IMG/VR virus record: IMGVR_UViG_3300047442_000001
Coordinates: 1-64,000 of that record
Length of the DNA stretch: 64,000 nt
Reading direction: 5' to 3' (one strand)
Source of the DNA: a virus
The notes beneath the pieces were generated by a model, which saw only the letters and a program-made list of their open reading frames with translations, had not been told where the DNA came from and searched no databases. Positions 11,869 through 58,653 of the stretch are shown here, one piece after another. Positions within the stretch are counted from its first letter, which is position 1. Every line of letters starts with the position of its first letter. The position numbers were made by a program, and so were the translations under genes.

Positions 11869-14016
11869 ATGTCCGCGCTCAAAGCCACGAAGCCAAAGAG
11901 AGAGCTGCCAACGAAGATTGATACGGAGTTCAATCCGGAGGACGTTGACATCGTTGAATTGAGTCCGGAAGATGTTGACGTCATCGACGTTCCCGAGGAC
12001 TCGGTCGACATCGTCGAAGACAAGCCCACGTTCACTCAGCCGCGCTCGCCGGGCGACGCGATCTCGGGAATTGCAGACCGCTTGGCTCGCGTGTCGCCGA
12101 CCGAGTTCGGTGACCCTGACGGCAACGTTCCGTATATCACTGCGCCCACGATGGTGGGTGGAGCATTGAAGGGTGGAGCACGGGGACTGAAGAACTTAGT
12201 CGCTTCCTTCCTTCCGCGTTCCCCGATCCAGGACGACGGCAGCTTGGACTTAGCCGGGATGGTCCAGAACGTTCCCTTCGTAGGTCCGCCAGCCGCTTCG
12301 ACAATCGATGCTGTTCAGCGGTTCCGGTCCGCGTCCACTTTGCCCAGAGGTCCACGTCGCGCCGTCCGTGGAGCTTCGGCCGTGGTCCCCTTCGGTCCGC
12401 AGCTCGAGGAGGTCGCGCAGCCGGGACTTCGGACCGCGGAAGGCGGGCCTGTGACCTTGGCCGACAACGAAGCAGCGGCCGAAGGAGCCGGGGACATCGG
12501 GACCCAAATCGCGGCAATGGCGTTGGCGCCGAAAGCTGTCCCAGCCGCCGCAAGAACGGTCAACAAGATCCGTGGACGTCTGGCGAGCGAAGTTGGTCCC
12601 GACTTCGTCAACCGGCTTCTGGCGAAGGGTGATCCGAAGGGCATCGCTACCGAACTCGAAGAAGGACGGAACCCCGCGAAGGCTCTGATGGAGGAGCCCA
12701 TCGACCTTCCGCGATTGCGCGAAGAACTCCCCGGTGGTGCCAACGCCGCGGCGGACGCAGCGCGTAAACGTTCGATCGAAGTCTCCATCGAACTCGAAGA
12801 TCTCCAAGCTTTACCCATCGGAAAGCGACCGAAGGGGTGGTCGAAGCAGATCACCACCTTGGCTAAGCGCCAAGCGGAGCTCGAAGCCGCAGCAACCGCC
12901 TTGGACAAACTGGCGGCCAAGAACCGTCTTGGGTCCGGTGGCGGTGGCGTGGCGGACATCCTTCCGAAGTCGGTGCGGCTCGCGATGAAGGCGGCGGATC
13001 TTCCATTGGCGTTGATGCAGCACGTGATCGACTCACCGAAGTTTCGGGTGGGTGCCGCGCGGAAGCTGGCGAAGTTGAAGCCGTCCGGGACCGGAACTAA
13101 ATACAACGATCCAAGCGGCGATGGTGACGACGAAGACCTCAGGACTCGTGACGAGTTCGAGTTCACGACCGAGAACGACAGCGGAGAGCCCACACACGAG
13201 AACAGCGACCTCGTCGACCGTGTACCGATGCACAAGCTTCTTCCGGAGCGTTTCCGAGCGGCTAGACATACGCTCGGTGCTTCGGCCGCGGACCGTAATT
13301 TCAAGCCCTCGCGCGCGCGCTGGGGACTCAGCTACGAAGAAGAAGACAAGTCCAAAGGTCTCCAGCGCTTCGACAACATGGACCAGCAGCCGAAGGTCAC
13401 GTACGAGAACGAACCGCGCGTTTCGATCCGCGATCCGAGCGGCGTAGTCAAAGGTGAATACGGACCACCCCGCGACGTCAGCAGCACGATTACTTCCTAC
13501 GGCGACAACTCCAACGAGCCCTTCACTACGGTCCACGAGTACGGGCACGCGATCATGCAGGCCGACATGACCGACCAGGAGCGCGCGGCGTGGGAGAAAC
13601 TGTACTGGGGATACCGGAACCGCTACGACGAGCTTGAACAGAAGCAGTACCTGAGTCGTCGAGCCAAGTTTGAAGAGCACATCAATAACGCTCCGACGCA
13701 GACGGTGAGAGTGCGGTTGATTGAAGCTGAAGAGGCTCAGCGGCGGCAAGACGACGCGGAGCTGGCCAAGATCTCCATCCCCCGGGCACTTAAGACGAGA
13801 ACTCCGCACGAAGCTCTCCCGTCGATCATCGCTCACTACATCCTGGACTCTTCGGCTCTGAAGAAGACGTACCCGGACATCTACGGGTTCGTGAAGCAAA
13901 TCTTCGGTGGACGGGAGTACATCAACCAAGTCAAAGGTGGCGGACCGCAGCCGCCGCCGGCCACGAAGATGAAGACGAAGATGGCACCGAAGCCGCGACC
14001 GCGAATGCGTGAGTGA
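11869..14016 (+). CDS. large virion/ejection-type protein with HExxH zinc-metallopeptidase-like motif
   Basis: 715-aa ORF; TVHEYGHAIM at aa 554-563 (nt 13534-13548 = HEYGH). Confidence 0.6.
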   Translation: MSALKATKPKRELPTKIDTEFNPEDVDIVELSPEDVDVIDVPEDSVDIVEDKPTFTQPRSPGDAISGIADRLARVSPTEFGDPDGNVPYITAPTMVGGALKGGARGLKNLVASFLPRSPIQDDGSLDLAGMVQNVPFVGPPAASTIDAVQRFRSASTLPRGPRRAVRGASAVVPFGPQLEEVAQPGLRTAEGGPVTLADNEAAAEGAGDIGTQIAAMALAPKAVPAAARTVNKIRGRLASEVGPDFVNRLLAKGDPKGIATELEEGRNPAKALMEEPIDLPRLREELPGGANAAADAARKRSIEVSIELEDLQALPIGKRPKGWSKQITTLAKRQAELEAAATALDKLAAKNRLGSGGGGVADILPKSVRLAMKAADLPLALMQHVIDSPKFRVGAARKLAKLKPSGTGTKYNDPSGDGDDEDLRTRDEFEFTTENDSGEPTHENSDLVDRVPMHKLLPERFRAARHTLGASAADRNFKPSRARWGLSYEEEDKSKGLQRFDNMDQQPKVTYENEPRVSIRDPSGVVKGEYGPPRDVSSTITSYGDNSNEPFTTVHEYGHAIMQADMTDQERAAWEKLYWGYRNRYDELEQKQYLSRRAKFEEHINNAPTQTVRVRLIEAEEAQRRQDDAELAKISIPRALKTRTPHEALPSIIAHYILDSSALKKTYPDIYGFVKQIFGGREYINQVKGGGPQPPPATKMKTKMAPKPRPRMRE

Positions 14017-14059: not shown

Positions 14060-14089
14060 GTGACGGATAGCAACACATGCCCCTACAAT
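14060..14089 (+). promoter_or_regulatory. promoter candidate GTGACG-N18-TACAAT (a TTGACT also sits at 14045-14050)
   Basis: Hexamers read directly in the gap after gene 11869..14016. Confidence 0.35.
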
Positions 14090-14124
14090 TGGTGACGACA
14101 GCGGACCCAGAGAGATCAGCGACG

Positions 14125-14484
14125 ATGCCGGAGATCGGTGAGAAGGAAGAACGACGTTCCGGTGAGGACCGGCGGAGCGAAACTCCTCACCCCAGTCCTT
14201 GGGCCAACCCCGGCCTTTGGGTCAGCATTACCGGTATCCTCCTCACCGTCTGCATCTTCATGGCCGGACTGCTCCTCAGTGAGTTGAAGTCCATCAACGC
14301 CACCATGACCGCGAGCCTCGTTGCTGCTGCGCATCAGCAGGAGAAGGCGGACGGTCTGCGTCGCGACATCGACGAGTTGAAGATCTGGCGTGCGTCGCAG
14401 GACGTTTGGAATGCCAACCTCCTCGGCGACATGAAAGTGGCAAAGCAGTTCATGGCGGACTCGAAGAAGAGCAACGTACCGTAA
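14125..14484 (+). CDS. membrane protein, one TM plus coiled-coil tail (holin/spanin-like topology)
   Basis: Frame 14077..14484; ATG 14125 preferred because the TACAAT box lies downstream of ATG 14077; TM GLWVSITGILLTVCIFMAGLLLS. Confidence 0.5.
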   Translation: MPEIGEKEERRSGEDRRSETPHPSPWANPGLWVSITGILLTVCIFMAGLLLSELKSINATMTASLVAAAHQQEKADGLRRDIDELKIWRASQDVWNANLLGDMKVAKQFMADSKKSNVP

Positions 14485-14497
14485 GGGGAAATTGAAC

Positions 14498-14830
14498 ATG
14501 GGCGGACCAGCTTGCACCAAAGGAATTCTCGACAACAACGGCAACATGGGATCAGCCGCACATCGGCTGTCCGGATCATCATTCGCGTTGCTGGCGACTA
14601 CGACGGCAGCGAGCGACGGCTTCCGCGAGATGTACGACGATCTCAAAGACGAGGACAAAGCCACGTTCCTGAAGCTCAGCGACGACATCTGCGAATGGGG
14701 CGACAAGATGCGCGACTGGCAAGCGATCATCGAAAGGTGGGACACGGCCACGCACGCGCAGATGGTCACGATGGCGAAGAAGTACATCAAGTACAAATCA
14801 GACGGCACCTACGACGACGAGAAGAAGTAG
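14498..14830 (+). CDS. hypothetical protein
   Basis: Frame 14492..14830; ATG 14498 lies 8 nt after AAGGGGA. Confidence 0.5.
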   Translation: MGGPACTKGILDNNGNMGSAAHRLSGSSFALLATTTAASDGFREMYDDLKDEDKATFLKLSDDICEWGDKMRDWQAIIERWDTATHAQMVTMAKKYIKYKSDGTYDDEKK

Positions 14831-14833
14831 CGC

Positions 14834-15352
14834 GTGACTTGGCCGAACCTCATTGCCTTCCTTGGTGTACTCGCCAGTCTGACTGTCGCCGGAGTCACCG
14901 TCTTCCGCGCACGCACCGAACGTCGAGTGGACCGCGCCACGATCGCAGGCGAGTGGGCGATCCAGATGATCGGCGAGTTGCCTGACGCGATTCTTCGCGT
15001 GGCCGCCGACGAGCGGATCGTGTACGCGAACGTCCAAGCCTCGCTCATGACGAAGTTCCACACACGCGAGCTTGTTGGCATGAACGTGAACGATCTCATT
15101 CCGGCGCGGTTCCGCAAGCAGCATCCGAGTCACATGCGCGGCTACCGCAACTCCCCAAGGACGCGCGCGATGGGCACGGCCGGGACCGAGTTGTACATGC
15201 TCGACAAACGCGGCGAGGAAACGCGCGTGCTCATCTACCTCAAGCAGATGGAGCCGATCGACAACGGGCCGGAGACGCTTGTCGTGATGCGCGACTACAA
15301 CGAGCAGGCGAAGCTACTCGCGGCCACCGAAGGGCACACCGTACACCAGTGA
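14834..15352 (+). CDS. membrane-anchored PAS-domain protein
   Basis: 172-aa ORF; N-terminal TM LIAFLGVLASLTVAGVTVF; PAS-like LPDAILRVAADERIVYANVQ...ELVGMNVNDLIP...YMLDKRGEETRVLIYL...VVMRDYNEQ. Confidence 0.7.
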   Translation: MTWPNLIAFLGVLASLTVAGVTVFRARTERRVDRATIAGEWAIQMIGELPDAILRVAADERIVYANVQASLMTKFHTRELVGMNVNDLIPARFRKQHPSHMRGYRNSPRTRAMGTAGTELYMLDKRGEETRVLIYLKQMEPIDNGPETLVVMRDYNEQAKLLAATEGHTVHQ

Positions 15353-15363
15353 TGTGGACTTGG

Positions 15364-15510
15364 GAACGGTGCAGCCCGGCGGGTGGGATCGCCGGGCTGG
15401 TCGTAGAGAGGTTCAACTTCGAGGTCGCTTCAAGGCTCTGTGAAAAGGTCCACGTTCGGAGGGAGCAGATCCACCACTTCGTCTTCACTTCGGGCCGGGC
15501 TGCACCGTTC
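15364..15510. repeat. 17-bp perfect inverted repeat flanking 113 nt at the point where the two arms converge
   Basis: GAACGGTGCAGCCCGGC (15364-15380) and its reverse complement (15494-15510); nested 7-bp hairpin GCCCGGC/GCCGGGC at 15374-15397. Confidence 0.6.
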
Positions 15511-15535: not shown

Positions 15536-16168
15536 TTAGGTGATGGTGCGGACGAACGAAGATCCCGGCTTCTCGATGCCGAAGAAGTCCGGCCGGCGCA
15601 CGTACCACATGCGCGCCTGCGCCACGATGCGGAGCTTGTCACCGGGCAGGAAACCCCACAAACTGCTCAGAAGCTCGTTGTTGGTTGGAAGCTGTGCTTC
15701 GTCGCTCGCGTCGATCGTATACGGATGAACTGAACCGTACTTACCGACTTCGGTCGCGGGCGGTGGCTGAGCCGGCGGCGGTGTCGGCGTTTCCGGCGTC
15801 GTTGGTTGCGGCGGCTGCGGTGGCTCGGGGACCACGGGCGGTGGCTGCGGCAACGCCGCCGGTCCCGGTGCTGGCGTCGGCGTTGGCGTCGATGGCGTGA
15901 CCGGAATCTGTCCGCCATTGGCGTCCTGCATGAGCGCGACGATTACGTCGATGATGGCTTGCGTTCCGCCTAGCAGCGCCGTAGCGGTCTTCTGGCTGAT
16001 GAGACCCAGCGACGCGGTCGTCGACACCAGAGACTTGAACAGAGTCGCGACGTAAGCCGACTTCGAGGCCCCGGAGCCGGGCTGACGGAACGAGCGTTCG
16101 GCGTCCTGGATGAACGCGATGAGTTGGGCCAGAAGGGGGATGTACTGGAGATATCGGAGAATGTTCAC
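15536..16168 (-). CDS. hypothetical protein with long Pro/Thr-rich linker
   Basis: 210-aa ORF; helical N-domain, PTPTPAPGP...PPQPPQPTTPETPTPPPAQPPP linker, C-terminal domain. Confidence 0.6.
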   Translation of the reverse strand: MNILRYLQYIPLLAQLIAFIQDAERSFRQPGSGASKSAYVATLFKSLVSTTASLGLISQKTATALLGGTQAIIDVIVALMQDANGGQIPVTPSTPTPTPAPGPAALPQPPPVVPEPPQPPQPTTPETPTPPPAQPPPATEVGKYGSVHPYTIDASDEAQLPTNNELLSSLWGFLPGDKLRIVAQARMWYVRRPDFFGIEKPGSSFVRTIT

Positions 16169-17287: not shown

Positions 17288-20200
17288 TTACTTAAGTCGC
17301 GCCCAGTTGACCGCGAACTTCATCGAAGTCGTGATCTTCACGCCGTTGGGAAGATCGACTGGGTTCATCATGAAGGTCTCGACCGTGGTCGCGGTCACCG
17401 ACCTAGAGACTTCGGTATCGCGGACCTGGAACAGGTTCTCATCGTGGATCGACATCAGGAGCGACGTGCCCACACGGTCCAGCGTCTTCTTTCCTTTGTT
17501 CCACAGATCCGCGAGACCCATCTTCAGCACTTCAGCCGCGGTACATTGAATACGGAAATTGACGGCCTCACGTTCTGCGGCTTCTCTGATGCCGTTGATC
17601 TGCGACCACACGCCCGGGCAGTAACGGATGTGCCCCATGAGCGAGCGCACGTAGCCGTGCTGCCGGGCGAAGGACACGGTCTCTTCGATGTAGTCACCGA
17701 TCCCCGGGAACACTTCGCGAATCCACATCCGAATGAGGTCCGCGCACTCTTCAAGGGTGTACTTCATTCCACGAAGTTCCATCTGCGCCTGAAGTCCGCG
17801 TGGCGTGATCCCGAAGACGATACCGAAGTTGAGGTTCTTCGACGATTCGCGGATATCTGCGTACTTCTTTACGCCAGCTTTGCGGCCTTCGTAGATTTCG
17901 TCGTAGCTCATCGACCACGCTCGGGCGGCTCCGATGATGTGCGGGTCGCGACCTTCGATGAAGGCACGGAGAAGTTCACCGTCGCCGGAGAGCGCGGCCA
18001 GAACGCGGAGCTCGACTTGTTCATAGTCGGCCGAACTCAAGACGAAGCCATCCGGCGCGATGAAGCACTCGCGAATCAAGCGGCCGAGGTCAGCGCCACC
18101 TTTGTTGCGGACCGGGATGTTCTGAAGATTGATCGGATCTCCGGATGCCCAACGAAATGTTGCCGCGGTCGTCGGGCGGATACGTGTGTGAACTCTTCCT
18201 TCTTTGTCGACTAAGCGCGGGATCTTCTCCGCGTACGTGGTCACGAGCTTGTGCCGCGTTCTGTAGTCCAAGATCAACTGAACCGTCGACACGATGTCTT
18301 CGCGGTCGGAATACTTCAGCTTCAACCCTTCCAAGACTTTGTCGTCGGTCGAAGCACGCCTGCCGGACTTCGTCAACTTTTCCGATTGAAGGTCGAAGCT
18401 GAACGTGGGCTCGAAGTCCACTTTGTCTTCGTCCGTGTACGTGAGCTTCCGTTCACCGAAGAGAAGTGCCGCGACTTGGTCCCCAGACGCTGGATTGATC
18501 GGTCGTCCGCAGGCGCGGCGAAGTTGATGAAGGATCTCGTCGTTTTCGCGGCGCAGACGTTTCGCCAAGCGAAGGAGCTTGTCGCAGTCGACCAGCATCC
18601 CGTTGCGTTGGATCTCGGCGGCGGCGGGGATCACCGAGAGATCGATCCGGTAGGCACGACGAAGATCCATTGAATCGATCATCGCGGAGACCTTCGGATA
18701 GATCCTCAGGGTAACGTCTGCGTCACGCGCCGAGTACTGGATAGCGTCGTCGGACGGTATGTCGTCCAAGGTGGGCTCTGGCATCGGCCCAAGTAGCTCC
18801 TCCACAGGACCGCGAACGTCGTCATCCCAGCTCTTCCACCGATCGCGGATCGTTCTCGGTTTCCGTTCGTTGCCTTCGGTCTCGACTGAATCTTCGTCAG
18901 CGTCCGAGTCAGGATCGTCGAACGTGCCCTTCTCGATGTCTTCTTGCAGCTTCCGCAGGTAGCGTCCGATCTCCCATCCGGTACTGATCGACCAGACTCC
19001 GGTGTCCCAGTGGTATTTCGGTTGGCCCGCGCGCGCGGGCCACAGTCCGCCGTCGATGCACGCGGTACAGGCGTCTGTGGACTTTGAACAGGAGCAGAAC
19101 TTGGTCGTATGCTTCTTAGCTCCACTGATTCGACCAAACCCGAGGCACAGATCGCAATTCGGATCGGTGACACGTCGCGTCTCCGCAACTTTGCCGGTTC
19201 CACCGCAGACAGCGCACCGTTTCGCGTCTATGGCTCGTTTGATGTAGCTGAGTGCTAGTCTCCGTTCAGCGGGACGGATGACGTCGTCGTAGGACTGCAT
19301 CGGAACGCCGGCTAGCCGACGACCGTTGGGCTTCAGTCCAAGAGGGAGCAGCCGAAGACAGAAGAGCATGAGCATCGTGTCTTCGACGCGGGACCAGTCC
19401 ACTTCGATCCCAAGTTCCGACAGAATGGGCACGTCGTAGAGGGCATTATGAAAAATTACTCTCCCGGTCCCGGAAACGAGTCTACTGCTCTCCTGCAACG
19501 CAGCACTCTGCACGCTTCGCACGACCCGGGCTCGGCCGGCTTCGGATGCATAGGACAGCCCCCAGACATTTCCAATAACGCCTTCAGTATCAACGGCGAG
19601 CGTTCGCGGACGTAGGCGCGTGTTGCTTCTTTCAATAGATCGGCTGATGTCGGCATCTATGACTTCCTTGTAATCTGGGTGCGGGAACTCGTCGACAACG
19701 GAGAAGGGTTCCAAGTCTCCGTGAACGTAGAGGGAAAGTTGTTGGATGTCCCACCACACCAAGGGCGCGAGCTCGGAGTTGTGGAGTCCGGAAGCTGGGT
19801 GGTAGAGCGGAACGACTAGAATATTCTCCAGCCATCCTTGATCGCTTGGCCAGCGGTCTTCGGCTCCTTCGCCGACGCCACCACTGTCATCTCCGCTCCG
19901 CAGCCGCAGCGGCCCGGACCCGTTCCGATCGAGTGAGTCTCTCCCATCCGAAGGGAGTTGAACGTCCCCAAGTTTGGACACGCGTGCGTGTACTTCGGAT
20001 TCGACGGAACGCAGGTATGGATGTGCGTGCCCGGCGGAAGCCAGAAGAGCGTTTCTGAATTTTCGCTCGACTCCGTCCGCCGTCGACTGCCCCACTCGGG
20101 ACCGCTGTGCTCGTGGTACCACCGCATCCCGTTGCGATCGCAGGAGGCGTCGCACACGTGCTCCGAGCGGGAACGCGAGTCCGTGTGCCGCTTCCATAGT

Positions 20201-20554
20201 AACTTCAGAACCCAGAAGCCAGCGAGCAGCGACCCGGCCCACAGCACCAATCCACTTCGGCCGGACAGTAAGGATTTCTTCGATGATCTCGGGCTCGTCA
20301 CGGGCGATGTCCTCCTTCGACGGTGGTCTTTGTTTACCATTGACTACGGGTGGTTGGATTTTGACTAGGTTGGTGACGCGAATCGTATGACGTGGGAGCC
20401 GGGCGCGGTCCAACATCCGGTTGAGCTCCTTGCCCGACTTCCCGCGTTCACAGAACGGTTGTCCGGTGACGGTTTCCCAGTAGCCTGGAGCTTCGCCGAT
20501 GAGCAAGACTTCGGCGTCGGTGGGACCGTCACTTGGGACACGTCGCGGTTCCAC
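17288..20554 (-). CDS. family A DNA polymerase with 3'-5' exonuclease and N-terminal family-4-type UDG-like domain
   Basis: 1088 aa. UDG motifs GEAPG..GQPF and YHPAS. Exo motifs LAVDTEG, FHNALYDVPIL, YSARDADV. Pol motifs DYEQVELRVLA, KNLNFGIVFG, SIHDENL. Confidence 0.9.
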   Translation of the reverse strand: MEPRRVPSDGPTDAEVLLIGEAPGYWETVTGQPFCERGKSGKELNRMLDRARLPRHTIRVTNLVKIQPPVVNGKQRPPSKEDIARDEPEIIEEILTVRPKWIGAVGRVAARWLLGSEVTMEAAHGLAFPLGARVRRLLRSQRDAVVPRAQRSRVGQSTADGVERKFRNALLASAGHAHPYLRSVESEVHARVSKLGDVQLPSDGRDSLDRNGSGPLRLRSGDDSGGVGEGAEDRWPSDQGWLENILVVPLYHPASGLHNSELAPLVWWDIQQLSLYVHGDLEPFSVVDEFPHPDYKEVIDADISRSIERSNTRLRPRTLAVDTEGVIGNVWGLSYASEAGRARVVRSVQSAALQESSRLVSGTGRVIFHNALYDVPILSELGIEVDWSRVEDTMLMLFCLRLLPLGLKPNGRRLAGVPMQSYDDVIRPAERRLALSYIKRAIDAKRCAVCGGTGKVAETRRVTDPNCDLCLGFGRISGAKKHTTKFCSCSKSTDACTACIDGGLWPARAGQPKYHWDTGVWSISTGWEIGRYLRKLQEDIEKGTFDDPDSDADEDSVETEGNERKPRTIRDRWKSWDDDVRGPVEELLGPMPEPTLDDIPSDDAIQYSARDADVTLRIYPKVSAMIDSMDLRRAYRIDLSVIPAAAEIQRNGMLVDCDKLLRLAKRLRRENDEILHQLRRACGRPINPASGDQVAALLFGERKLTYTDEDKVDFEPTFSFDLQSEKLTKSGRRASTDDKVLEGLKLKYSDREDIVSTVQLILDYRTRHKLVTTYAEKIPRLVDKEGRVHTRIRPTTAATFRWASGDPINLQNIPVRNKGGADLGRLIRECFIAPDGFVLSSADYEQVELRVLAALSGDGELLRAFIEGRDPHIIGAARAWSMSYDEIYEGRKAGVKKYADIRESSKNLNFGIVFGITPRGLQAQMELRGMKYTLEECADLIRMWIREVFPGIGDYIEETVSFARQHGYVRSLMGHIRYCPGVWSQINGIREAAEREAVNFRIQCTAAEVLKMGLADLWNKGKKTLDRVGTSLLMSIHDENLFQVRDTEVSRSVTATTVETFMMNPVDLPNGVKITTSMKFAVNWARLK

Positions 20555-22836: not shown

Positions 22837-23216
22837 AGGTACCATGACTCCCATCGTCGATCCAACTGGTGCTTCCAAGGCAATAGTTCGACTCGTTGAA
22901 ACTGTCGTGCACGGCCGAATGGCCAATGCTTGATGAATAAACCGCGCTCTGCTAAAGATTTCAGTTGAATCAGCTGATCATAAATGACGGCCATCTGACA
23001 CGCGAGCACCGAGCGGAGTGCATCCTCCCTGAAACTCAGACTGTGAACTGCAAAGTCCGATACGACTCTGTAGCACCAATCCACGTATCTTCCTGTGCGA
23101 CTGTGCACGCGCACGATGAAATAGGCGGCCAAACGCGCTTCGTCAGATATGAAGGATGCAGGTCCCAACGTCAGCCTGAAGAATTCGCCGGTGCTCTCGG
23201 TACTGAGTAGGAGCAT
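22833..23216 (-). CDS. hypothetical protein (codon-usage outlier)
   Basis: 127-aa ORF coupled at both ends (TGATG, ATGA); uses TTA/CTA/AGA/ATA/TTT codons that are rare in neighbouring genes. Confidence 0.45.
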   Translation of the reverse strand: MLLLSTESTGEFFRLTLGPASFISDEARLAAYFIVRVHSRTGRYVDWCYRVVSDFAVHSLSFREDALRSVLACQMAVIYDQLIQLKSLAERGLFIKHWPFGRARQFQRVELLPWKHQLDRRWESWYL

Positions 23217-23653
23217 CAGTGCCCTCCCGATCTGATCTCACTGCGGACTTGCATCAGCAGCCGTCCGAGGTGGTTGTCGCCGATACCTCGGCACACGCCC
23301 CAGAAAGTGTCACCCCATTCGTTCCATTCGATCAGCTCCGCGTCTTCAGTCGACAGAAGAAGGTCACGAAGTCCGCGGTTGGCGAACTTCTTCCGGAGAA
23401 GCTCCAACATGACATCGAGCCGCACTTCGGTCAAGTCTGAACGAAGAGGCACAGCGCGTCCGTAGCGTTTCGCGGCTCCCGGAGTGATCCCGGACCGGAA
23501 GTGGGCTCGGTGGTCTTCGGACTCGGTCTTCGCGGCTTGGTACGCGTGCTCGACCGAAGCGTAGATGCCTCCGTCGAATTCGACCGTCACGGCTTGGAAG
23601 TTTGACAGAAACCGGTATCGGCCGTCGAAGCGTTCGATGGGTTTAGTCTTCAT
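23216..23653 (-). CDS. NADAR (YbiA/DUF1768-like) domain protein
   Basis: 145 aa; FLSNF, SVEHAYQAAK, KF..R.LRDLLLST, WGDTFWG, GDNHLGRLLMQVR match YbiA-family motifs. Confidence 0.8.
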   Translation of the reverse strand: MKTKPIERFDGRYRFLSNFQAVTVEFDGGIYASVEHAYQAAKTESEDHRAHFRSGITPGAAKRYGRAVPLRSDLTEVRLDVMLELLRKKFANRGLRDLLLSTEDAELIEWNEWGDTFWGVCRGIGDNHLGRLLMQVRSEIRSGGH

Positions 23654-52657: not shown

Positions 52658-54817
52658 GTGTACTCAGACTTAATCACCGGACGCCGGATCGCCAACTACG
52701 AACGCGTCTACCGAACGCGCCTTCGCGAAGTCCCCATCCAACGAGTCCGTCAACTCGTTGACTACCTCAACGGTCACCGGGACCACACTTCCAAGAAGGA
52801 AGTCTGGGTCCGTCCTCCAGTGACTCCGGAGTTCCGCGCCTTCATCGACAACGAGCTGGCGATGTGTAAAGCCAACTTCCTCTACTTCGCGCGCCGCTAC
52901 TGCTTCCTTCAACTCGATGGTGGCGACGGCGGTTACGGTCTCTTCGTTCCTTGGGAGTCGCAACTTCTGCTTCTCACGAAGATGGCTTCAGCGGAGGAAC
53001 ATATGTGGTTTCGCCGCGATTCCGGCGATCACGCGTTCGACGCCCTTTGCTACTTCATTCACAAAGCTCGTCAACTTGGTTTCACGGCTCTGGTCCAACT
53101 TCTCCTCCTTCACCGAGCACTCTTCTACTCGGGGTCTCGAACGATCACCGTGTCGCTCGACGACCAAAAGACCCAGGACGTCCACAAACGTCTCAGTGAC
53201 GCGTACGACAAACTCCCGTACTGGATGAAAGTGCCGATCCACCGTCAGGACGTAGAGCGTGGAAAGTGGCTCACAAACGGTTCCAAGCTCACCCTCCAGG
53301 ACTTCAGTCAGGAGTCGGGACTTGGTCAAGGTGAACAGTGGGACAACGCTCACTTGACCGAAGTCGCTGCGGTCCCCGACGAATACTGCCGCGTTGCGAT
53401 TCAGAATCACTTCATGCCCACGATCGCGCGTTCGCTCCGCGGCATGGCCTTCATGGAGTCCACGGCCCAGGGAATGGGCAACTGGTGGCACACCGTGTGG
53501 CAACTGGTCGTCGCTGAAGGTTTTGGACGCTGGCGTCCGATGTTCTGTCCGTGGTACGCGCAGCCGACGAAGTGGTCGCGGCCCGACGTCCCTTCGTTCT
53601 GGTCCCCGGACGCCGACACCCAAGCCCACGCGGCCAAGATCGCGCTCACCAGCGAACGGTGGATGGGTCGAGTTTACACGCCGACGCGTGAACAGTTGTA
53701 CTGGTGGGAGACTGAACGGGCGACGTACCGCGACACGCAAGGGCTGGGGATCTTCTACACCGACTACCCGGCGACGCCGGAGGAGTCGTTCCAGCATAGC
53801 GGCTCGGGCGCGTTCAACTCAGAGATCATTCAACTCCTCACCGACCGCGTCATCAGAAAGCCCACCGCGTACGTTCTCGGGAGCGTCAACTACGAGTCTT
53901 CAGCGCGGCGGCTGGACCGAAACGTCATCACCTTCGGCGACCAGTCCCTTATCCCCGTTCACATGACTGAACGCGACGAGGTCGACCCACGCGGCTTGGT
54001 CTTGGTCTTCGATCCACCGCGCAAAGACGTCTACTACTCGGTCGGCGGCGACCCGGCCGAAGGTATTCCGGGGTGGCATCCGAAGACGCGGATGTCGACG
54101 CCGGACGAACTCGGTCGCGACAACGCGGCGTTATCAGGCTGGTACGTTGACCCGATGTCGGGGCTCACGATGCAGGCGGTCGAATTCGCCGGCCCCGTGA
54201 CCCCGCGCGAGTTCGCCCTTTACGCCGCGGTCGTTGGCCGGTGGTTCGGTGGGCTCTACGGAAACGAGCGCGGAGCCCCTTTGGTCATCGAGATATATCC
54301 AGGTCCCGGCGGTCAAACGTACGCGCGGCTCGCGTATGAGCTCGGGTATAGCCACTTCTTCCAGTGGTCGACGTTCAACGGCTCCGAAATAAAGTTCACG
54401 AACTCGTTTGGGTTCTACTCGAGCCAGAAGTCCGTCCGGGAAGCTTGGATCAAAGCCAAGGACTTGATTGAACACAAAGACACGCTACCGGTTCGTCCTC
54501 AGTCACCGTACGTACTCTACGAGATGAGCTACGCGACTTGGGACCCGGTCCGGATGCGCGGTCAGGCGATGGGAGGCTTTCACGACGATCGTATTTCCGC
54601 GACTTTGTTCGCGCTGTGGCAGCTCCACAGTTGGCACCTTCCGCAGCAGGCACCCGCGCGCCAAGTAGGACCGCAGCCGGGGCAACCGGTTGAAGTTCCC
54701 GCCGACAAGGTGGACTTCCAGCTCCGCGACATCGCCACTACGGTGGAACTGAACAAAGCCTACGACGCGTGGTGGCGAAGGAGCGTGGCGTACGGAAACG
54801 GGAACGGTGGATGGTGA
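52658..54817 (+). CDS. terL: terminase large subunit
   Basis: 719 aa; GTG start; Walker A-like FIHKARQLGFT; Walker B-like DNAHLTEVAAV; size and position ahead of the portal-like gene. Confidence 0.8.
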   Translation: MYSDLITGRRIANYERVYRTRLREVPIQRVRQLVDYLNGHRDHTSKKEVWVRPPVTPEFRAFIDNELAMCKANFLYFARRYCFLQLDGGDGGYGLFVPWESQLLLLTKMASAEEHMWFRRDSGDHAFDALCYFIHKARQLGFTALVQLLLLHRALFYSGSRTITVSLDDQKTQDVHKRLSDAYDKLPYWMKVPIHRQDVERGKWLTNGSKLTLQDFSQESGLGQGEQWDNAHLTEVAAVPDEYCRVAIQNHFMPTIARSLRGMAFMESTAQGMGNWWHTVWQLVVAEGFGRWRPMFCPWYAQPTKWSRPDVPSFWSPDADTQAHAAKIALTSERWMGRVYTPTREQLYWWETERATYRDTQGLGIFYTDYPATPEESFQHSGSGAFNSEIIQLLTDRVIRKPTAYVLGSVNYESSARRLDRNVITFGDQSLIPVHMTERDEVDPRGLVLVFDPPRKDVYYSVGGDPAEGIPGWHPKTRMSTPDELGRDNAALSGWYVDPMSGLTMQAVEFAGPVTPREFALYAAVVGRWFGGLYGNERGAPLVIEIYPGPGGQTYARLAYELGYSHFFQWSTFNGSEIKFTNSFGFYSSQKSVREAWIKAKDLIEHKDTLPVRPQSPYVLYEMSYATWDPVRMRGQAMGGFHDDRISATLFALWQLHSWHLPQQAPARQVGPQPGQPVEVPADKVDFQLRDIATTVELNKAYDAWWRRSVAYGNGNGGW

Positions 54818-56002: not shown

Positions 56003-56719
56003 ATGTCGAGACCCAACTGTGTAGTCATCGAAGGTGCTAACGGAATCGAATGGGGACCGCACGCTGCCGATTTCAATTCGGACGGCGTTCACGTGTGCCT
56101 CTACCACATTCCTTGCGTGCTCAAGGAGGGGACTACGTGGACTCTGGTCAATCTCCAAGTCCCACAGTTCGCTCTGTGCGACCGGTGTGGTGCTTCGGTC
56201 GAACGTCTGGTCGACGTCGACTTCAGCGGCGATCCCACGGTCCCCTTCTGCGCCTTCTGTCCTTCGATCGAGCGGTCCACGTTCCGGAGCGCCAACGCTC
56301 AAGTGTCCGACGCCGAAGCCACCGTCGTTGCCTTCAATCCCCGCACGGGCGACGTGGTGAACTTCGCGATGCGTAACGATCAGCCGATACCTTCAGACTT
56401 AGCCTCCAGCGGTTACGAACCCGTGCGACTGAAGCACTTCCGCCAAGTCGAACAGGTGGCTCGAGCGATGGGCGCACGGTCCGGTCGACAGGTGATTGCG
56501 GGGATCGAGACCGACAACCCGGAAGGAGTCGACGGCGACCGGTCCTTCGCTCGCGCGCGCCGCGAGCACGAAGCCCGAGTCGACGCGGCTAACCGTCAGG
56601 CCCTCGATGCTTCGCGTGAAGTTCGCCGCCGCGGAATCAAGCTTGATAAGCTCAGTTCCGAACAGCGATCAGAGATGGCCGTGGCCATCAATGAAGGCCG
56701 TGTAAGGCACAATCGCTGA
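56003..56719 (+). CDS. hypothetical protein
   Basis: 238-aa ORF. Confidence 0.55.
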   Translation: MSRPNCVVIEGANGIEWGPHAADFNSDGVHVCLYHIPCVLKEGTTWTLVNLQVPQFALCDRCGASVERLVDVDFSGDPTVPFCAFCPSIERSTFRSANAQVSDAEATVVAFNPRTGDVVNFAMRNDQPIPSDLASSGYEPVRLKHFRQVEQVARAMGARSGRQVIAGIETDNPEGVDGDRSFARARREHEARVDAANRQALDASREVRRRGIKLDKLSSEQRSEMAVAINEGRVRHNR

Positions 56720-58653
56720 TGGCGTTCGCCGAGTCGCCGCCGCAGCCTGAAGACTCCGGCTACGGTCCGCGCGGCCGGAACATGCTGGGCTTCTGCTCCG
56801 AGATGCTTCAGGAGGCGCAGAAAGTCGTTCGGTCGTGTCAAGGCTACTCGAACATCGTGCCGACGATGCAGGCCATCGCCGGAGCCAATACGTCTTCGGT
56901 CTTAGTCCCCACTGACCGTTCCCAGACGTTCGTCAACGAGATCGGCCGCAACCACGAAACGCTCCACGCCCACATGACCGACACCAAGCCTTCGGTCGAG
57001 TTCCGCACCAAGAACTCAGCCTACCAAGGTCACGCGAAGGACTTCGGCGGCATGTGGAACGTGTGGTACCTCAACCGGGCCATCGACCACAAATTCGGTT
57101 CGGTAGTCGACTACGCTTCGGTCGCCGGCTCCGGCTACGCTCATCAGCAGTGGAACAAAGCAATCAACGATTTGGACGTGGTGGCGTTCGACGGCCGGGA
57201 CTTCCTTCCTGTGAACCCCTTCGACGACACTGTTCAAAGTTGCTGGGGAGGCTTCCTTCGCCGCTTCGTTCCGCTGCCGTGGGCTCAGTCGATGTTCCCG
57301 CACATGGCGGCGCAGCTCGAGGCTGACGCTACCTACGAGCCGGCGACGGGGCTTCCTGAATTCGACCGCAACAAGGTGCTGTCGAAAGCTGACCGTGGTG
57401 CTCCCTTCTTCTCTTCTATGGCGAACACCGAAGCCGAAGAGCGAAGGAGCCAAGGAATCCGCGGAGTTCACCTGTACTGGTTCTACTTCAACGATCCCAC
57501 GGTCAACGATTCGTCCGACGTCATGTACGTCGGCGACTGGGAGAAGTCGGACAGTGGTTCCGGCTACGAAGCCCTGACCAACTATTCGTACCGTGTGAAG
57601 CCCAACCTTCCGGTGTACCCCAGAAAGCGGCTGGTGGTTCATTCAAAGACCGCCCTGTGCTACGACGGCCCGAATCACTACTGGCACGGGATGTTCCCCG
57701 TGTCCAAGTACACGATGATCCCGCTTCCGTGGTCATGGCTCGGGATGTCTCCGCTCTGGGACTGCCTTCCGCTTCAGGAGTCTCTTACCTTCGCTCTTCG
57801 CGTGCACGACGACCACGTTCGCAAGCTCACCCGTCCCCCGGTCCATGGCGGCCGCAATACGGCCGACGACGACCTTCGCAAACTTAGCGAGATGATCGCG
57901 CTGCCTGGTGCGTTCTGGAAGAACATGATGCCCGACGAGATCGGGATCGAAGTGATTCCTCCACTTGACGCTGCGGTCCCGTGGCAGATCGACTACTGCA
58001 CCCGCAAGATTGCCGAGCGCATGGGCGTGGATGCGGTCGGAGCGCTCATGGAAAAGCTCCAAGTTCCGGCCGCGGACACTTCGGACCAGTTGATGTTCGA
58101 AGGCGGCGCGTCGATGCGTCTGCGTTCGCGGCACTTGGAACGCTTCTACCGCGAACAGGGCCGCATGTTCGCGTTCAACTCGTCGCAGTTCTTCAGTGTG
58201 GGAAAGAAGTTTCGCATGATCGGTGGTGAGTCGCTCAAGCCGCAGGACTACATGGACGACACCACGTCCATCGTTCCACGTTCTGACGATGACGACCGCG
58301 ATCCGGTCGAAATCGGGACCGAGTGGGCGGATCAGTTTGATTTCTACGTTGCACAGTCTTCGCTGCTTCGCTCCGCTGCCTTAGCCGAAGTCGCAACCGC
58401 AATGGCGGCAATCCGTCTGGGCGCCATCGACCGGAGAACGTTCCTTGAGAAGCTTGACTACCAGAACGTGGAAGAGATCATGACTCGCGTCCGTGCCGAG
58501 ATGCAGGAGAAGGTAGAGATGGCCGCCGCTGTCAAAGGTGCCGGCGACCAAGTCGGTGGCATCAGACCGCTGGGCGGTGACCCGCGCGGACGCGACGCCA
58601 CGGGCACCGGAGCCCCGAGCCTCGGTGGCGACGGCTACGTTCGCAACCAGTGA
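56719..58653 (+). CDS. portal protein (putative)
   Basis: 644 aa; TGATG coupling; size and position in the terL block; no motif-level proof. Confidence 0.5.
   Translation: MAFAESPPQPEDSGYGPRGRNMLGFCSEMLQEAQKVVRSCQGYSNIVPTMQAIAGANTSSVLVPTDRSQTFVNEIGRNHETLHAHMTDTKPSVEFRTKNSAYQGHAKDFGGMWNVWYLNRAIDHKFGSVVDYASVAGSGYAHQQWNKAINDLDVVAFDGRDFLPVNPFDDTVQSCWGGFLRRFVPLPWAQSMFPHMAAQLEADATYEPATGLPEFDRNKVLSKADRGAPFFSSMANTEAEERRSQGIRGVHLYWFYFNDPTVNDSSDVMYVGDWEKSDSGSGYEALTNYSYRVKPNLPVYPRKRLVVHSKTALCYDGPNHYWHGMFPVSKYTMIPLPWSWLGMSPLWDCLPLQESLTFALRVHDDHVRKLTRPPVHGGRNTADDDLRKLSEMIALPGAFWKNMMPDEIGIEVIPPLDAAVPWQIDYCTRKIAERMGVDAVGALMEKLQVPAADTSDQLMFEGGASMRLRSRHLERFYREQGRMFAFNSSQFFSVGKKFRMIGGESLKPQDYMDDTTSIVPRSDDDDRDPVEIGTEWADQFDFYVAQSSLLRSAALAEVATAMAAIRLGAIDRRTFLEKLDYQNVEEIMTRVRAEMQEKVEMAAAVKGAGDQVGGIRPLGGDPRGRDATGTGAPSLGGDGYVRNQ

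Follow-up and report, generated by a model that had tools for sequence, protein, structure and literature searches.

We analyzed a 64,000-nt stretch of viral DNA (positions 1 to 64,000 of the IMG/VR record IMGVR_UViG_3300047442_000001; hereafter the window) and focused on one of its small genes, the TM-PAS gene, which encodes a transmembrane (TM) helix followed by a single PAS domain. Judged by its sequence and its modeled fold, the product is a SPECIFICALLY heme-type PAS protein of the FixL/DosP/FG214 clade (the clade corresponds to 'cluster 3' of Xing et al. 2023), and the PAS domain quite probably binds heme b. Our preferred reading, to which we assign a probability of roughly 0.4, is that the protein would be an inner-membrane-anchored, cytoplasm-facing heme b sensor of redox state or gas that acts within the lysis module of the phage. 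A known type of sensor would then sit in a setting, a phage lysis module, for which we found no prior description: the literature searched held no relevant report of a phage heme-PAS, of a holin with a PAS domain, of a sensor-domain protein in a lysis cassette or of oxygen-dependent lysis timing.

Architecture and heme-PAS signature

The gene starts with GTG and encodes 172 aa. Its features are as follows (all on the + strand; coordinates are those of the window, and AF2 stands for the AlphaFold2 model).

14834..15352, + strand: TM-PAS gene, predicted to encode an N-out single-pass anchor, a linker helix and a heme-type PAS domain, without an output domain
14840..14905, + strand: predicted TM helix, residues ~3-24, with the invariant Trp3 and the small-xxx-small pattern G11-x3-S15-x3-A19 (hydropathy, charge counts, conservation, AF2)
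14906..14971, + strand: basic juxtamembrane stretch RARTERRVDR and linker/N-cap helix, residues 25-46 (AF2, charge counts)
14981..15301, + strand: PAS core, residues 50-156 (Pfam PAS_9, TIGR00229, Foldseek)
15101..15124, + strand: F-alpha motif P90-x-R92-x-R94-K95-x-H97, with the codon of His97, the predicted proximal heme ligand, at 15122-15124 (alignments, family invariance)
15155..15175, + strand: FG-loop motif P108-R-x-R111-x-M113-G114, with the codon of Met113, the predicted distal ligand, at 15170-15172 (FG214 alignment, invariance)

Residues 50-156 match Pfam PAS_9 (E=1.8e-7, 31.8 bits against a cut-off of 27); Pfam PAS (23.2 bits against 22.6), PAS_4 and TIGR00229 (26.8 bits against a cut-off of 22.9) match as well. 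Pfam and NCBIfam scans found no further domain beyond PAS in the 172-aa protein, which ends 16 residues after the PAS core. The AF2 model, built on a 14-sequence alignment, begins with a single unbroken helix (residues 3-46), continues with a canonical PAS core and closes with a short helix at the C-terminus; the five-stranded antiparallel sheet (strands 52-56, 61-65, 119-123, 129-139 and 147-154) and the flanking helices (67-105, in between) of the PAS superfamily are present. An earlier reading of this DNA, made from the sequence alone without database searches (the sequence-only reading), had described a 172-aa product with one N-terminal TM helix, a single PAS fold and no output domain, and Pfam, TIGR00229, hydropathy and the AF2 model bear this out.

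Residues ~3-24 are hydrophobic. Across the family, taken here and in all conservation counts below as the ~19 distinct stand-alone phage proteins, no Lys or Arg precedes this helix, and three to six fall within the 15 residues that follow it (19/19 distinct members). By the positive-inside rule, this distribution of charges therefore predicts an N-out, C-in orientation with the PAS domain facing the cytoplasm, where the requirement for loading with heme b would be satisfied, in agreement with the cytoplasmic location of the cellular relatives. The alternative of a cleavable signal peptide with a periplasmic PAS domain is contradicted by the charge distribution.

Searches against known structures returned heme-binding PAS proteins ahead of all others. 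With the single query, phmmer against all PDB sequences gave solely heme-PAS proteins at E<0.1 (FG214, entry 10jx; EcDOS/DosP; FixL of two rhizobia). With a profile of the phage family, all 14 PDB matches were FG214 (4.5e-12), DosP (~3e-9) or FixL (RmFixL 2.6e-7; BjFixL 1e-5 to 4.5e-4), and no non-heme PAS or LOV structure was found at E<=0.01. The Foldseek search of the AF2 model against PDB gave 561 matches at E<=0.001; the first 33 chains are all heme-PAS, and LOV, NifL and PpsR domains come after them. NCBIfam yielded sub-threshold local matches to DosP and FixL. A LOV or flavin-binding PAS was considered and rejected (non-heme PAS structures appear only after the 33 heme-PAS matches, and the protein has no Cys), as was a c-type heme (no CxxCH motif, no Cys in the protein).

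The HMMER alignments place query residues L88-I-P-A-R-F-R-K-Q-H97 without gaps against LMPEPYRHEH of RmFixL, LIPRDLRPAH of EcDOS/DosP and LIPERFREVH of FG214. Query residue 56 pairs with DosP residue 36 (full-length numbering), and H97 therefore pairs with His77. His97 is thereby aligned to the proximal heme His in each case (His77 of DosP, His156 of FG214 and the proximal His of RmFixL). The FixL alignment that the sequence-only reading had put forward, including the His at the proximal-ligand position, is in this way reproduced, and the HMMER comparison with PAS families and FixL/DOS structures that it had suggested gives PAS matches above thresholds, with heme-PAS structures the best.

On the distal side, the closest guide is FG214, a one-component helix-turn-helix (HTH)-PAS regulator of Fimbriimonas ginsengisoli (PDB 10jx/10jy), in which the PAS-bound heme b has His156 as proximal ligand and His175 and Met172 as alternative distal ligands; the dithionite-reduced crystal has His156-Met172 ligation, and the redox or ligand state of the heme drives a monomer-to-dimer switch (bioRxiv 10.64898/2026.03.15.711900). 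Its segment H156-Q-E-H159...P167-R-R-R170-T-M172-G-E-H175 aligns with H97-P-S-H100...P108-R-T-R111-A-M113-G-T-A116 of the phage protein, so that Met113 matches Met172 at the same +16 spacing from the proximal His. The motif H-x10-P-R-x-R-x-M-G is found in 18 of the 19 family members and is shifted by one residue in the other (P0150). In the phage protein, T118 stands where BjFixL (R220) and DosP (R97) have the O2-stabilising Arg, and across the family this position is T, A, M, R or L. The lack of conservation of this Arg, together with the invariance of the distal Met, points to a six-coordinate redox or ligand-exchange sensor of the FG214/EcDOS kind and not to a FixL-like O2 sensor. The most likely cofactor state, as far as sequence comparison can predict it, is a six-coordinate His/Met heme b that would report redox state or swap the Met for a diatomic ligand. 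The sequence-only reading had proposed a redox- or O2-responsive sensor: the redox or ligand-sensing half of that proposal gains from the FG214-like Met, and the FixL-like O2-sensing half appears to fail with the replacement of the Arg by T118.

Phage family and lysis-gene neighborhood

Among 5.8 billion proteins we found 13 homologues of 172-192 aa, and a profile search of 1.84 billion representatives added five further stand-alone clusters. All members have the same architecture: after a short N-tail and an invariant Trp come a TM helix with the pattern G-x3-[G/S]-x3-A, a basic stretch and the PAS domain. P90, R94, H97, R111, M113 and G114 show no variation even among members at 39% identity (H97 in 19/19 members). 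The closest cellular relatives are tandem PAS repeats in multi-PAS histidine kinases of scattered phyla, which carry LxPxRFRxxH-x10-PxxRxMG and share 35-44% identity with the phage proteins; going by this resemblance, the PAS domain was evidently captured from cellular multi-PAS sensor proteins. Between phage copies dS ranges from 0.8 to >3 (near or beyond saturation) and dN/dS from 0.08 to 0.48, and the gene is under strong purifying selection. With dS at this level the capture is therefore old, and a recent horizontal capture was rejected on the same values.

We read ten PAS-carrying loci, namely the window and the loci L001–L005, L007–L009 and L014 of relatives. The PAS protein is the most conserved protein observed in these loci: the window copy is 73%, 48% and 69% identical to those of L001, L007 and L008, respectively, against just 32–35% identity for the DNA polymerases of the same three loci, and the TM/coiled-coil protein encoded nearby (see below) is 26–35% identical across loci.

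Close relatives outside this set were not found in the collections searched. A GenBank megablast with 9.6 kb returned no near-identical or related phage, the PAS protein had no tblastn match at E<=0.01 among 50,697 phage records, and pattern and tblastn searches of IMG/VR and the GTDB species genomes found no relatives and yielded neither a prophage nor a host. No PHROGs family matches the PAS part at E<=0.1, no holin family of Pfam or PHROGs matches the protein, and the PADLOC defense models match neither the PAS protein nor its neighbors. The best match of the large terminase is to Tunturiibacter (Acidobacteriota) phages at only 24.7% identity, whose genome is non-syntenic and without the PAS gene, and the tail fibre of the window resembles fibres of Ralstonia and Vibrio podophages. 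The host is probably Gram-negative.

The window is a phage genome, with a large terminase, a portal, structural and tail-fibre proteins and a DNA polymerase with a fused UDG-like domain (UDG-PolA). A near-identical PAS protein (differing only in that its GTG start is written V and not M) is encoded on a 66,322-bp JGI contig, and a mate from the same 90%-identity cluster on a 66,225-bp Logan contig, so that the window covers a genome almost completely. The TM-PAS gene closes the strand block that carries the packaging, virion and tail genes, as in the description by the sequence-only reading of a stand-alone PAS gene at the end of the late operon. It starts 3 nt past the stop codon of the upstream gene and is followed by a 183-nt gap and a convergent gene; its third-position GC content (GC3) is 0.82 as compared to ~0.61 in the region. 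The main elements of the neighborhood, in the window and in the relatives, are listed here.

14077..14484, + strand: first upstream partner, predicted N-in single TM helix and periplasmic coiled coil, Rz-like i-spanin or holin-like (alternative start 14125)
14498..14830, + strand: second upstream partner, predicted soluble all-helical protein with invariant C6 and C65, always between the first partner and the PAS gene
15536..16168, - strand: convergent gene for a 210-aa protein with an N-terminal hydrophobic/amphipathic module, a Pro-rich linker (50 residues) and a C-terminal domain
L004 6651-6794, L007 5847-5996 and L008 3136-3285: 47-49-aa family with two TM helices, overlapping the PAS gene
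L001 9785-9967 and L009 2080-2262: 60-aa family with two TM helices, Pfam THIVI_2564, likewise overlapping the PAS gene
L004/L005 and L008: PAS stop codon abuts or overlaps the start of a Peptidase_M15_4 endolysin gene
L007: PAS stop codon abuts or overlaps the start of a Peptidase_M15_3 endolysin gene
L009: PAS gene overlaps the gene of an unannotated 129-aa protein with HxH-type motifs, a possible LAS-type peptidase
L001: PAS gene, then a 105-aa TM protein, then a GH108 endolysin
L008 and L009: Phage_holin_10-type proteins downstream, followed in L008 by a lipoprotein
52658..54817: large terminase
56719..58653: portal
17288..20554, - strand: UDG-PolA fusion

The two genes upstream of the PAS gene are the same in 10/10 loci: one for an Rz-like TM/coiled-coil protein, then one for a two-Cys helical protein. 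Members of the TM/coiled-coil family (110–163 aa) combine a single TM helix with a coiled coil on the periplasmic side and a cytoplasmic tail in which D-R-R is invariant; against PHROGs they match the spanin family phrog_739 (1e-6 for the L002 member, 1e-4 for those of L014 and L001) and a holin family (1e-4). The cytoplasmic N-tail of the Rz-like protein is unusually long and has, besides the invariant D-R-R, a Pro right before the TM helix. This D-R-R-bearing tail could be a docking site for a cytoplasmic regulator. The two-Cys family (85–136 aa) is also found in phages without the PAS gene (L011, L013); the protein has no match in Pfam, PHROGs or NCBIfam, and its AF2 model (pLDDT 73) has no significant fold match in BFVD. 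In six loci, the window not being among them, a protein of 47–60 aa with two TM helices is inserted directly before the PAS gene. Between phages, these tiny proteins share 75–86% identity, also in cases where the PAS proteins share only ~42%.

On the other side, the PAS gene lies at most two genes upstream of an endolysin gene in 6/10 loci (the endolysins belong to several families, and that of L009 is a candidate); no endolysin adjoins it in the window, L002, L003 and L014. In L013, a locus without the PAS gene that was found via the two-Cys family, the upstream pair is followed by an N-out single-TM protein with a helical, non-PAS cytoplasmic domain; further downstream, the locus encodes an Amidase_3 endolysin, then a holin_10-like protein and a lipoprotein, and also a homologue of the 210-aa protein of the window. 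L011 and L012, found by the same search, have the upstream pair and lack the third gene. The endolysin/holin context and the swap in L013 thus suggest that the PAS protein fills a defined slot of the lysis cassette, with a TM anchor and an exchangeable cytoplasmic head. The convergent 210-aa protein shares 51% identity, in its N-terminal 90 aa, with the product of the gene after the L004 endolysin, and its C-terminal domain resembles L013 8848-9240; it is probably, on these similarities, a displaced member of the same lysis module on the opposite strand.

The sequence-only reading had called the two upstream genes membrane or lysis-like. This holds for the first (a single TM helix, spanin and holin matches) and not for the second, which has no TM helix and is predicted to be soluble and all-helical. 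The link to lysis that it had drawn has itself grown stronger with the loci of the relatives, where the PAS gene stands within two genes of several endolysin families and, in two of them, near a holin_10-type protein. We put the chance that the PAS protein has a lysis-related role at about even.

Several other features of the region were observed. At 15372-15399, in the gap that separates the convergent operons, is a GC-rich hairpin with a perfect 10-bp stem (CAGCCCGGCG / CGCCGGGCTG, 8-nt loop), and a second copy of GCCGGGCTG follows at 15496-15504; as an intrinsic terminator the hairpin was rejected (it lacks a T-run, and with a z-score of -1.2 the folding energy of the region is not unusual). 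Just 5' of the module, 11869..14016 (+) encodes a 715-aa virion-type protein with an HEYGH (HExxH) zinc-peptidase-like motif, and the counterpart large proteins in L002 and L003 carry Pfam LPD38. In UDG-PolA, a family A DNA polymerase carries the UDG-like domain as an N-terminal fusion, with a Cys-rich insert in the window copy; fusions 32–35% identical to it are encoded at L001 13030-15957, L007 9012-11918 and L008 7411-9834. A 145-aa protein encoded by 23216..23653 (-) has a strong NADAR domain match (Pfam E=6e-21). NADAR enzymes strip ADP-ribose from DNA, and this gene may serve counter-defense against DarT-type systems.

Proposed mechanism and alternatives

In the mechanism that we propose, the iron would be ligated on its proximal side by His97 of helix F-alpha and on its distal side by a displaceable Met113 from the FG loop; the heme would then be six-coordinate, like those of reduced FG214 and Fe(II) EcDOS. 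Either a redox change of the iron or the replacement of the Met by a small ligand (O2, NO or CO) would, as in FG214, remodel the FG loop together with the interface of the PAS dimer. Since one continuous helix joins the PAS domain to the small-xxx-small TM helix, the change would be passed to the membrane or to a cytoplasmic partner, and for want of an enzymatic output, the protein would exert its effect through contacts with other proteins of the lysis module. Candidate partners are the D-R-R tail of the Rz-like protein and the two-Cys protein and, in the relatives, the proteins with two TM helices, the holin_10-type protein and the endolysin. The outcome would be lysis advanced or delayed by the respiratory or redox state of the host. 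We offer the full chain, from heme sensing to altered timing of the lysis proteins, as a tentative proposal, and redox- or gas-dependent control of lysis timing as such is a doubtful step in it. Put most specifically, and speculatively, the His/Met state of the heme in these soil phages might switch the oligomeric state of the PAS domain and the TM helix and so gate a holin or spanin, with lysis timed by the oxygen or respiration of the host.

A number of observations weigh against a heme sensor in the lysis module. The Rz-like and holin matches of the neighboring TM protein are weak and may reflect coiled-coil composition. In three of the loci (the window, L002 and L014) the operon stops with the triad, and adjacency to an endolysin gene is thus not universal. 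No endolysin or holin was found in the 64-kb window itself by Pfam scans of ~40 open reading frames (ORFs) and by tblastn with the GH108, M15_3, M15_4, HxH and holin_10 proteins of the relatives; these genes could either lie in the 2.3 kb outside the window or be of an unrecognized type. The O2-stabilising Arg of FixL and DosP is absent, with T118 in its place. The expectation of heme binding derives from homology to one close subtype (FG214, described in a preprint) and to the more distant FixL and DosP, and the confidence of the AF2 model is moderate (pLDDT 69), falling below 50 in the FG loop and being lowest at residues 100–120. Moreover, the PAS protein evolves at a much lower rate than the phage proteins proposed as its partners, and a conserved host target would explain this at least equally well.

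This last point bears on the possibility that the protein is a decoy, whose PAS domain would heterodimerise with host multi-PAS histidine kinases or another conserved membrane target and rewire redox or oxygen signaling or respiration, its position in the lysis region being incidental. The nearest cellular relatives are indeed the tandem PAS domains of sensor kinases with the same motif, PAS domains commonly dimerise, and conservation far above that of the surrounding phage proteins is expected for a slowly evolving host partner. We nevertheless consider a decoy improbable: the gene is translationally coupled at the end of the structural/lysis strand and not placed among the early genes, the usual site of takeover functions, and the two genes that constantly accompany it encode phage proteins of the lysis region. 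If the lysis link fails, a phage-borne heme-PAS decoy against host signaling would still be new. Another explanation accepts the lysis link and drops the sensing, taking the protein for a structural or scaffolding subunit of the lysis apparatus in which the PAS fold provides dimerisation or partner binding, either without heme or with a different small ligand. The strict invariance of the His, the Met and the propionate-region Arg at heme-ligand positions across 39–99% identity argues against this, as do the facts that every sequence match and the top fold matches are heme-binding PAS domains and that a constraint far above that on PolA is unusual for a simple scaffold. Yet many PAS domains are cofactor-free, ~40% of the PAS domains in the FixL/DosP cluster are without the His, the AF2 model defines the heme pocket poorly, and the L013 slot holds a non-PAS helical cytoplasmic domain on a similar N-out anchor, so that the head appears swappable; we rate a scaffold as unlikely, though the foremost of the competing explanations.

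A role in superinfection control had been suggested by the sequence-only reading; as a factor of superinfection exclusion or membrane protection, the protein would block the entry of competing phage DNA or stabilise the membrane, perhaps in a redox-dependent manner. It is small and spans the inner membrane once, and the known Sie and Imm proteins are small membrane proteins too; however, its bulk is cytoplasmic and not periplasmic, its gene belongs to the late strand and is linked to the lysis cassette, no integrase or lysogeny module was seen in the ORFs scanned, and there is no PADLOC similarity, which makes this role quite improbable. Finally, the gene could be a moron, i.e. a recently captured host fragment without a role in the phage life cycle. 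Its cellular origin is clear and it is absent from more distant phages that retain the TM/coiled-coil and two-Cys pair (L011, L013), but the idea is largely refuted by synonymous sites near or beyond saturation with dN/dS of 0.08–0.48, and it sits poorly with the same position and N-terminal anchor in phages whose polymerases are only ~33% identical and with the overlap of its start and stop with neighboring genes; we hold it to be very improbable. The membrane-anchored heme sensor of the lysis module thus remains our preferred reading.

Phage lysis timing is understood to be set by an intrinsic holin 'clock', in a few cases modulated by antiholins that sense superinfection, and no lysis regulator or antiholin is known to carry a cofactor-binding sensor domain. 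If the preferred reading is true, phages would read the oxygen, redox or respiratory state of the host directly and adjust the moment of lysis, which would bear on burst size and on phage–host dynamics in soils and sediments with fluctuating oxygen. A minimal, 172-aa, output-less and membrane-anchored heme-PAS would also be a compact model for the transfer of a ligand state via a PAS domain to a TM helix, and a possible part for redox- or gas-triggered lysis circuits.

Comparison with known systems

Among the characterized heme-PAS proteins, FG214 is the best sequence match and has the same LIPxRFRxxH-x10-PRxRxMG pattern, at an identity of only ~25–27%. It differs from the phage protein in being soluble with a LuxR-type HTH output, where the phage protein is TM-anchored and without output, and in its main ferric distal ligand, His175, which is Ala116 in the phage protein and leaves it without the second His of a bis-His ligation. 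DosP (EcDOS) belongs to the same clade; its His77 corresponds to His97 in a common R-x-x-H-P context, and its Fe(II) heme is six-coordinate with His/Met ligation and a displaceable Met in the FG-loop/G-beta region. Unlike the phage protein, it has ~800 aa and works in the cytosol as a c-di-GMP phosphodiesterase; its Met95 falls two residues beyond Met113 in the alignment, and its O2-binding Arg97 has no counterpart (T118). With FixL, the phage protein shares the P-x3-R-x2-H motif and the proximal His, and some FixL proteins are membrane-anchored; FixL has a five-coordinate heme, Arg220 for O2 discrimination and a histidine-kinase output, the latter two of which are missing from the phage protein. 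Lacking the distal Arg and any histidine-kinase, phosphodiesterase (GGDEF-EAL) or HTH output, the phage protein is therefore not an orthologue of FixL, DosP or FG214.

Viral PAS proteins of other kinds exist. BFVD contains sensor kinases with PAS domains from jumbo phages and giant viruses, and also small, uncharacterised viral PAS proteins (165–240 aa) whose predicted fold aligns with nearly the whole TM-helix-plus-PAS model. These include A0A345MNJ9 (182 aa), S0A2B2 of Cellulophaga phage phi18:3 (172 aa), R9ZZL0 of phi19:1 (240 aa) and entries named 'PAS domain [uncultured Caudovirales phage]' (169–205 aa). They share 10–13% identity with the phage protein, and none was matched by tblastn against the 50,697 phage genomes. 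On these predicted folds, stand-alone PAS proteins may be a wider, unstudied theme in phages.

A phage PAS receptor that ties a small-molecule signal to a lysis decision has been described in VqmA of vibriophage VP882 (PMC8284805). In contrast to the protein studied here, VqmA is soluble: a transcription factor of the PAS-HTH type, it binds DPO, and its target is the switch from lysogeny to lysis. It is not of the heme type, not membrane-anchored, not output-less and not encoded in a lysis cassette.

Possible functional parallels are found among the antiholins. The known holins and antiholins have no sequence or fold relation to the phage PAS protein. RI and RIII of T4, S107 of lambda and LydB of P1 are, like it, small and encoded with lysis genes; they bind membrane lysis proteins and set the lysis time, a role to which the phage PAS protein is connected by synteny only. 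A possible analogy is that T4 RIII acts on the cytoplasmic tail of holin T, to which the conserved D-R-R tail of the neighboring TM protein could correspond. By that analogy, and as tentatively as the gating itself, the PAS protein would provide a cytoplasmic, heme-based analogue of T4 lysis inhibition.

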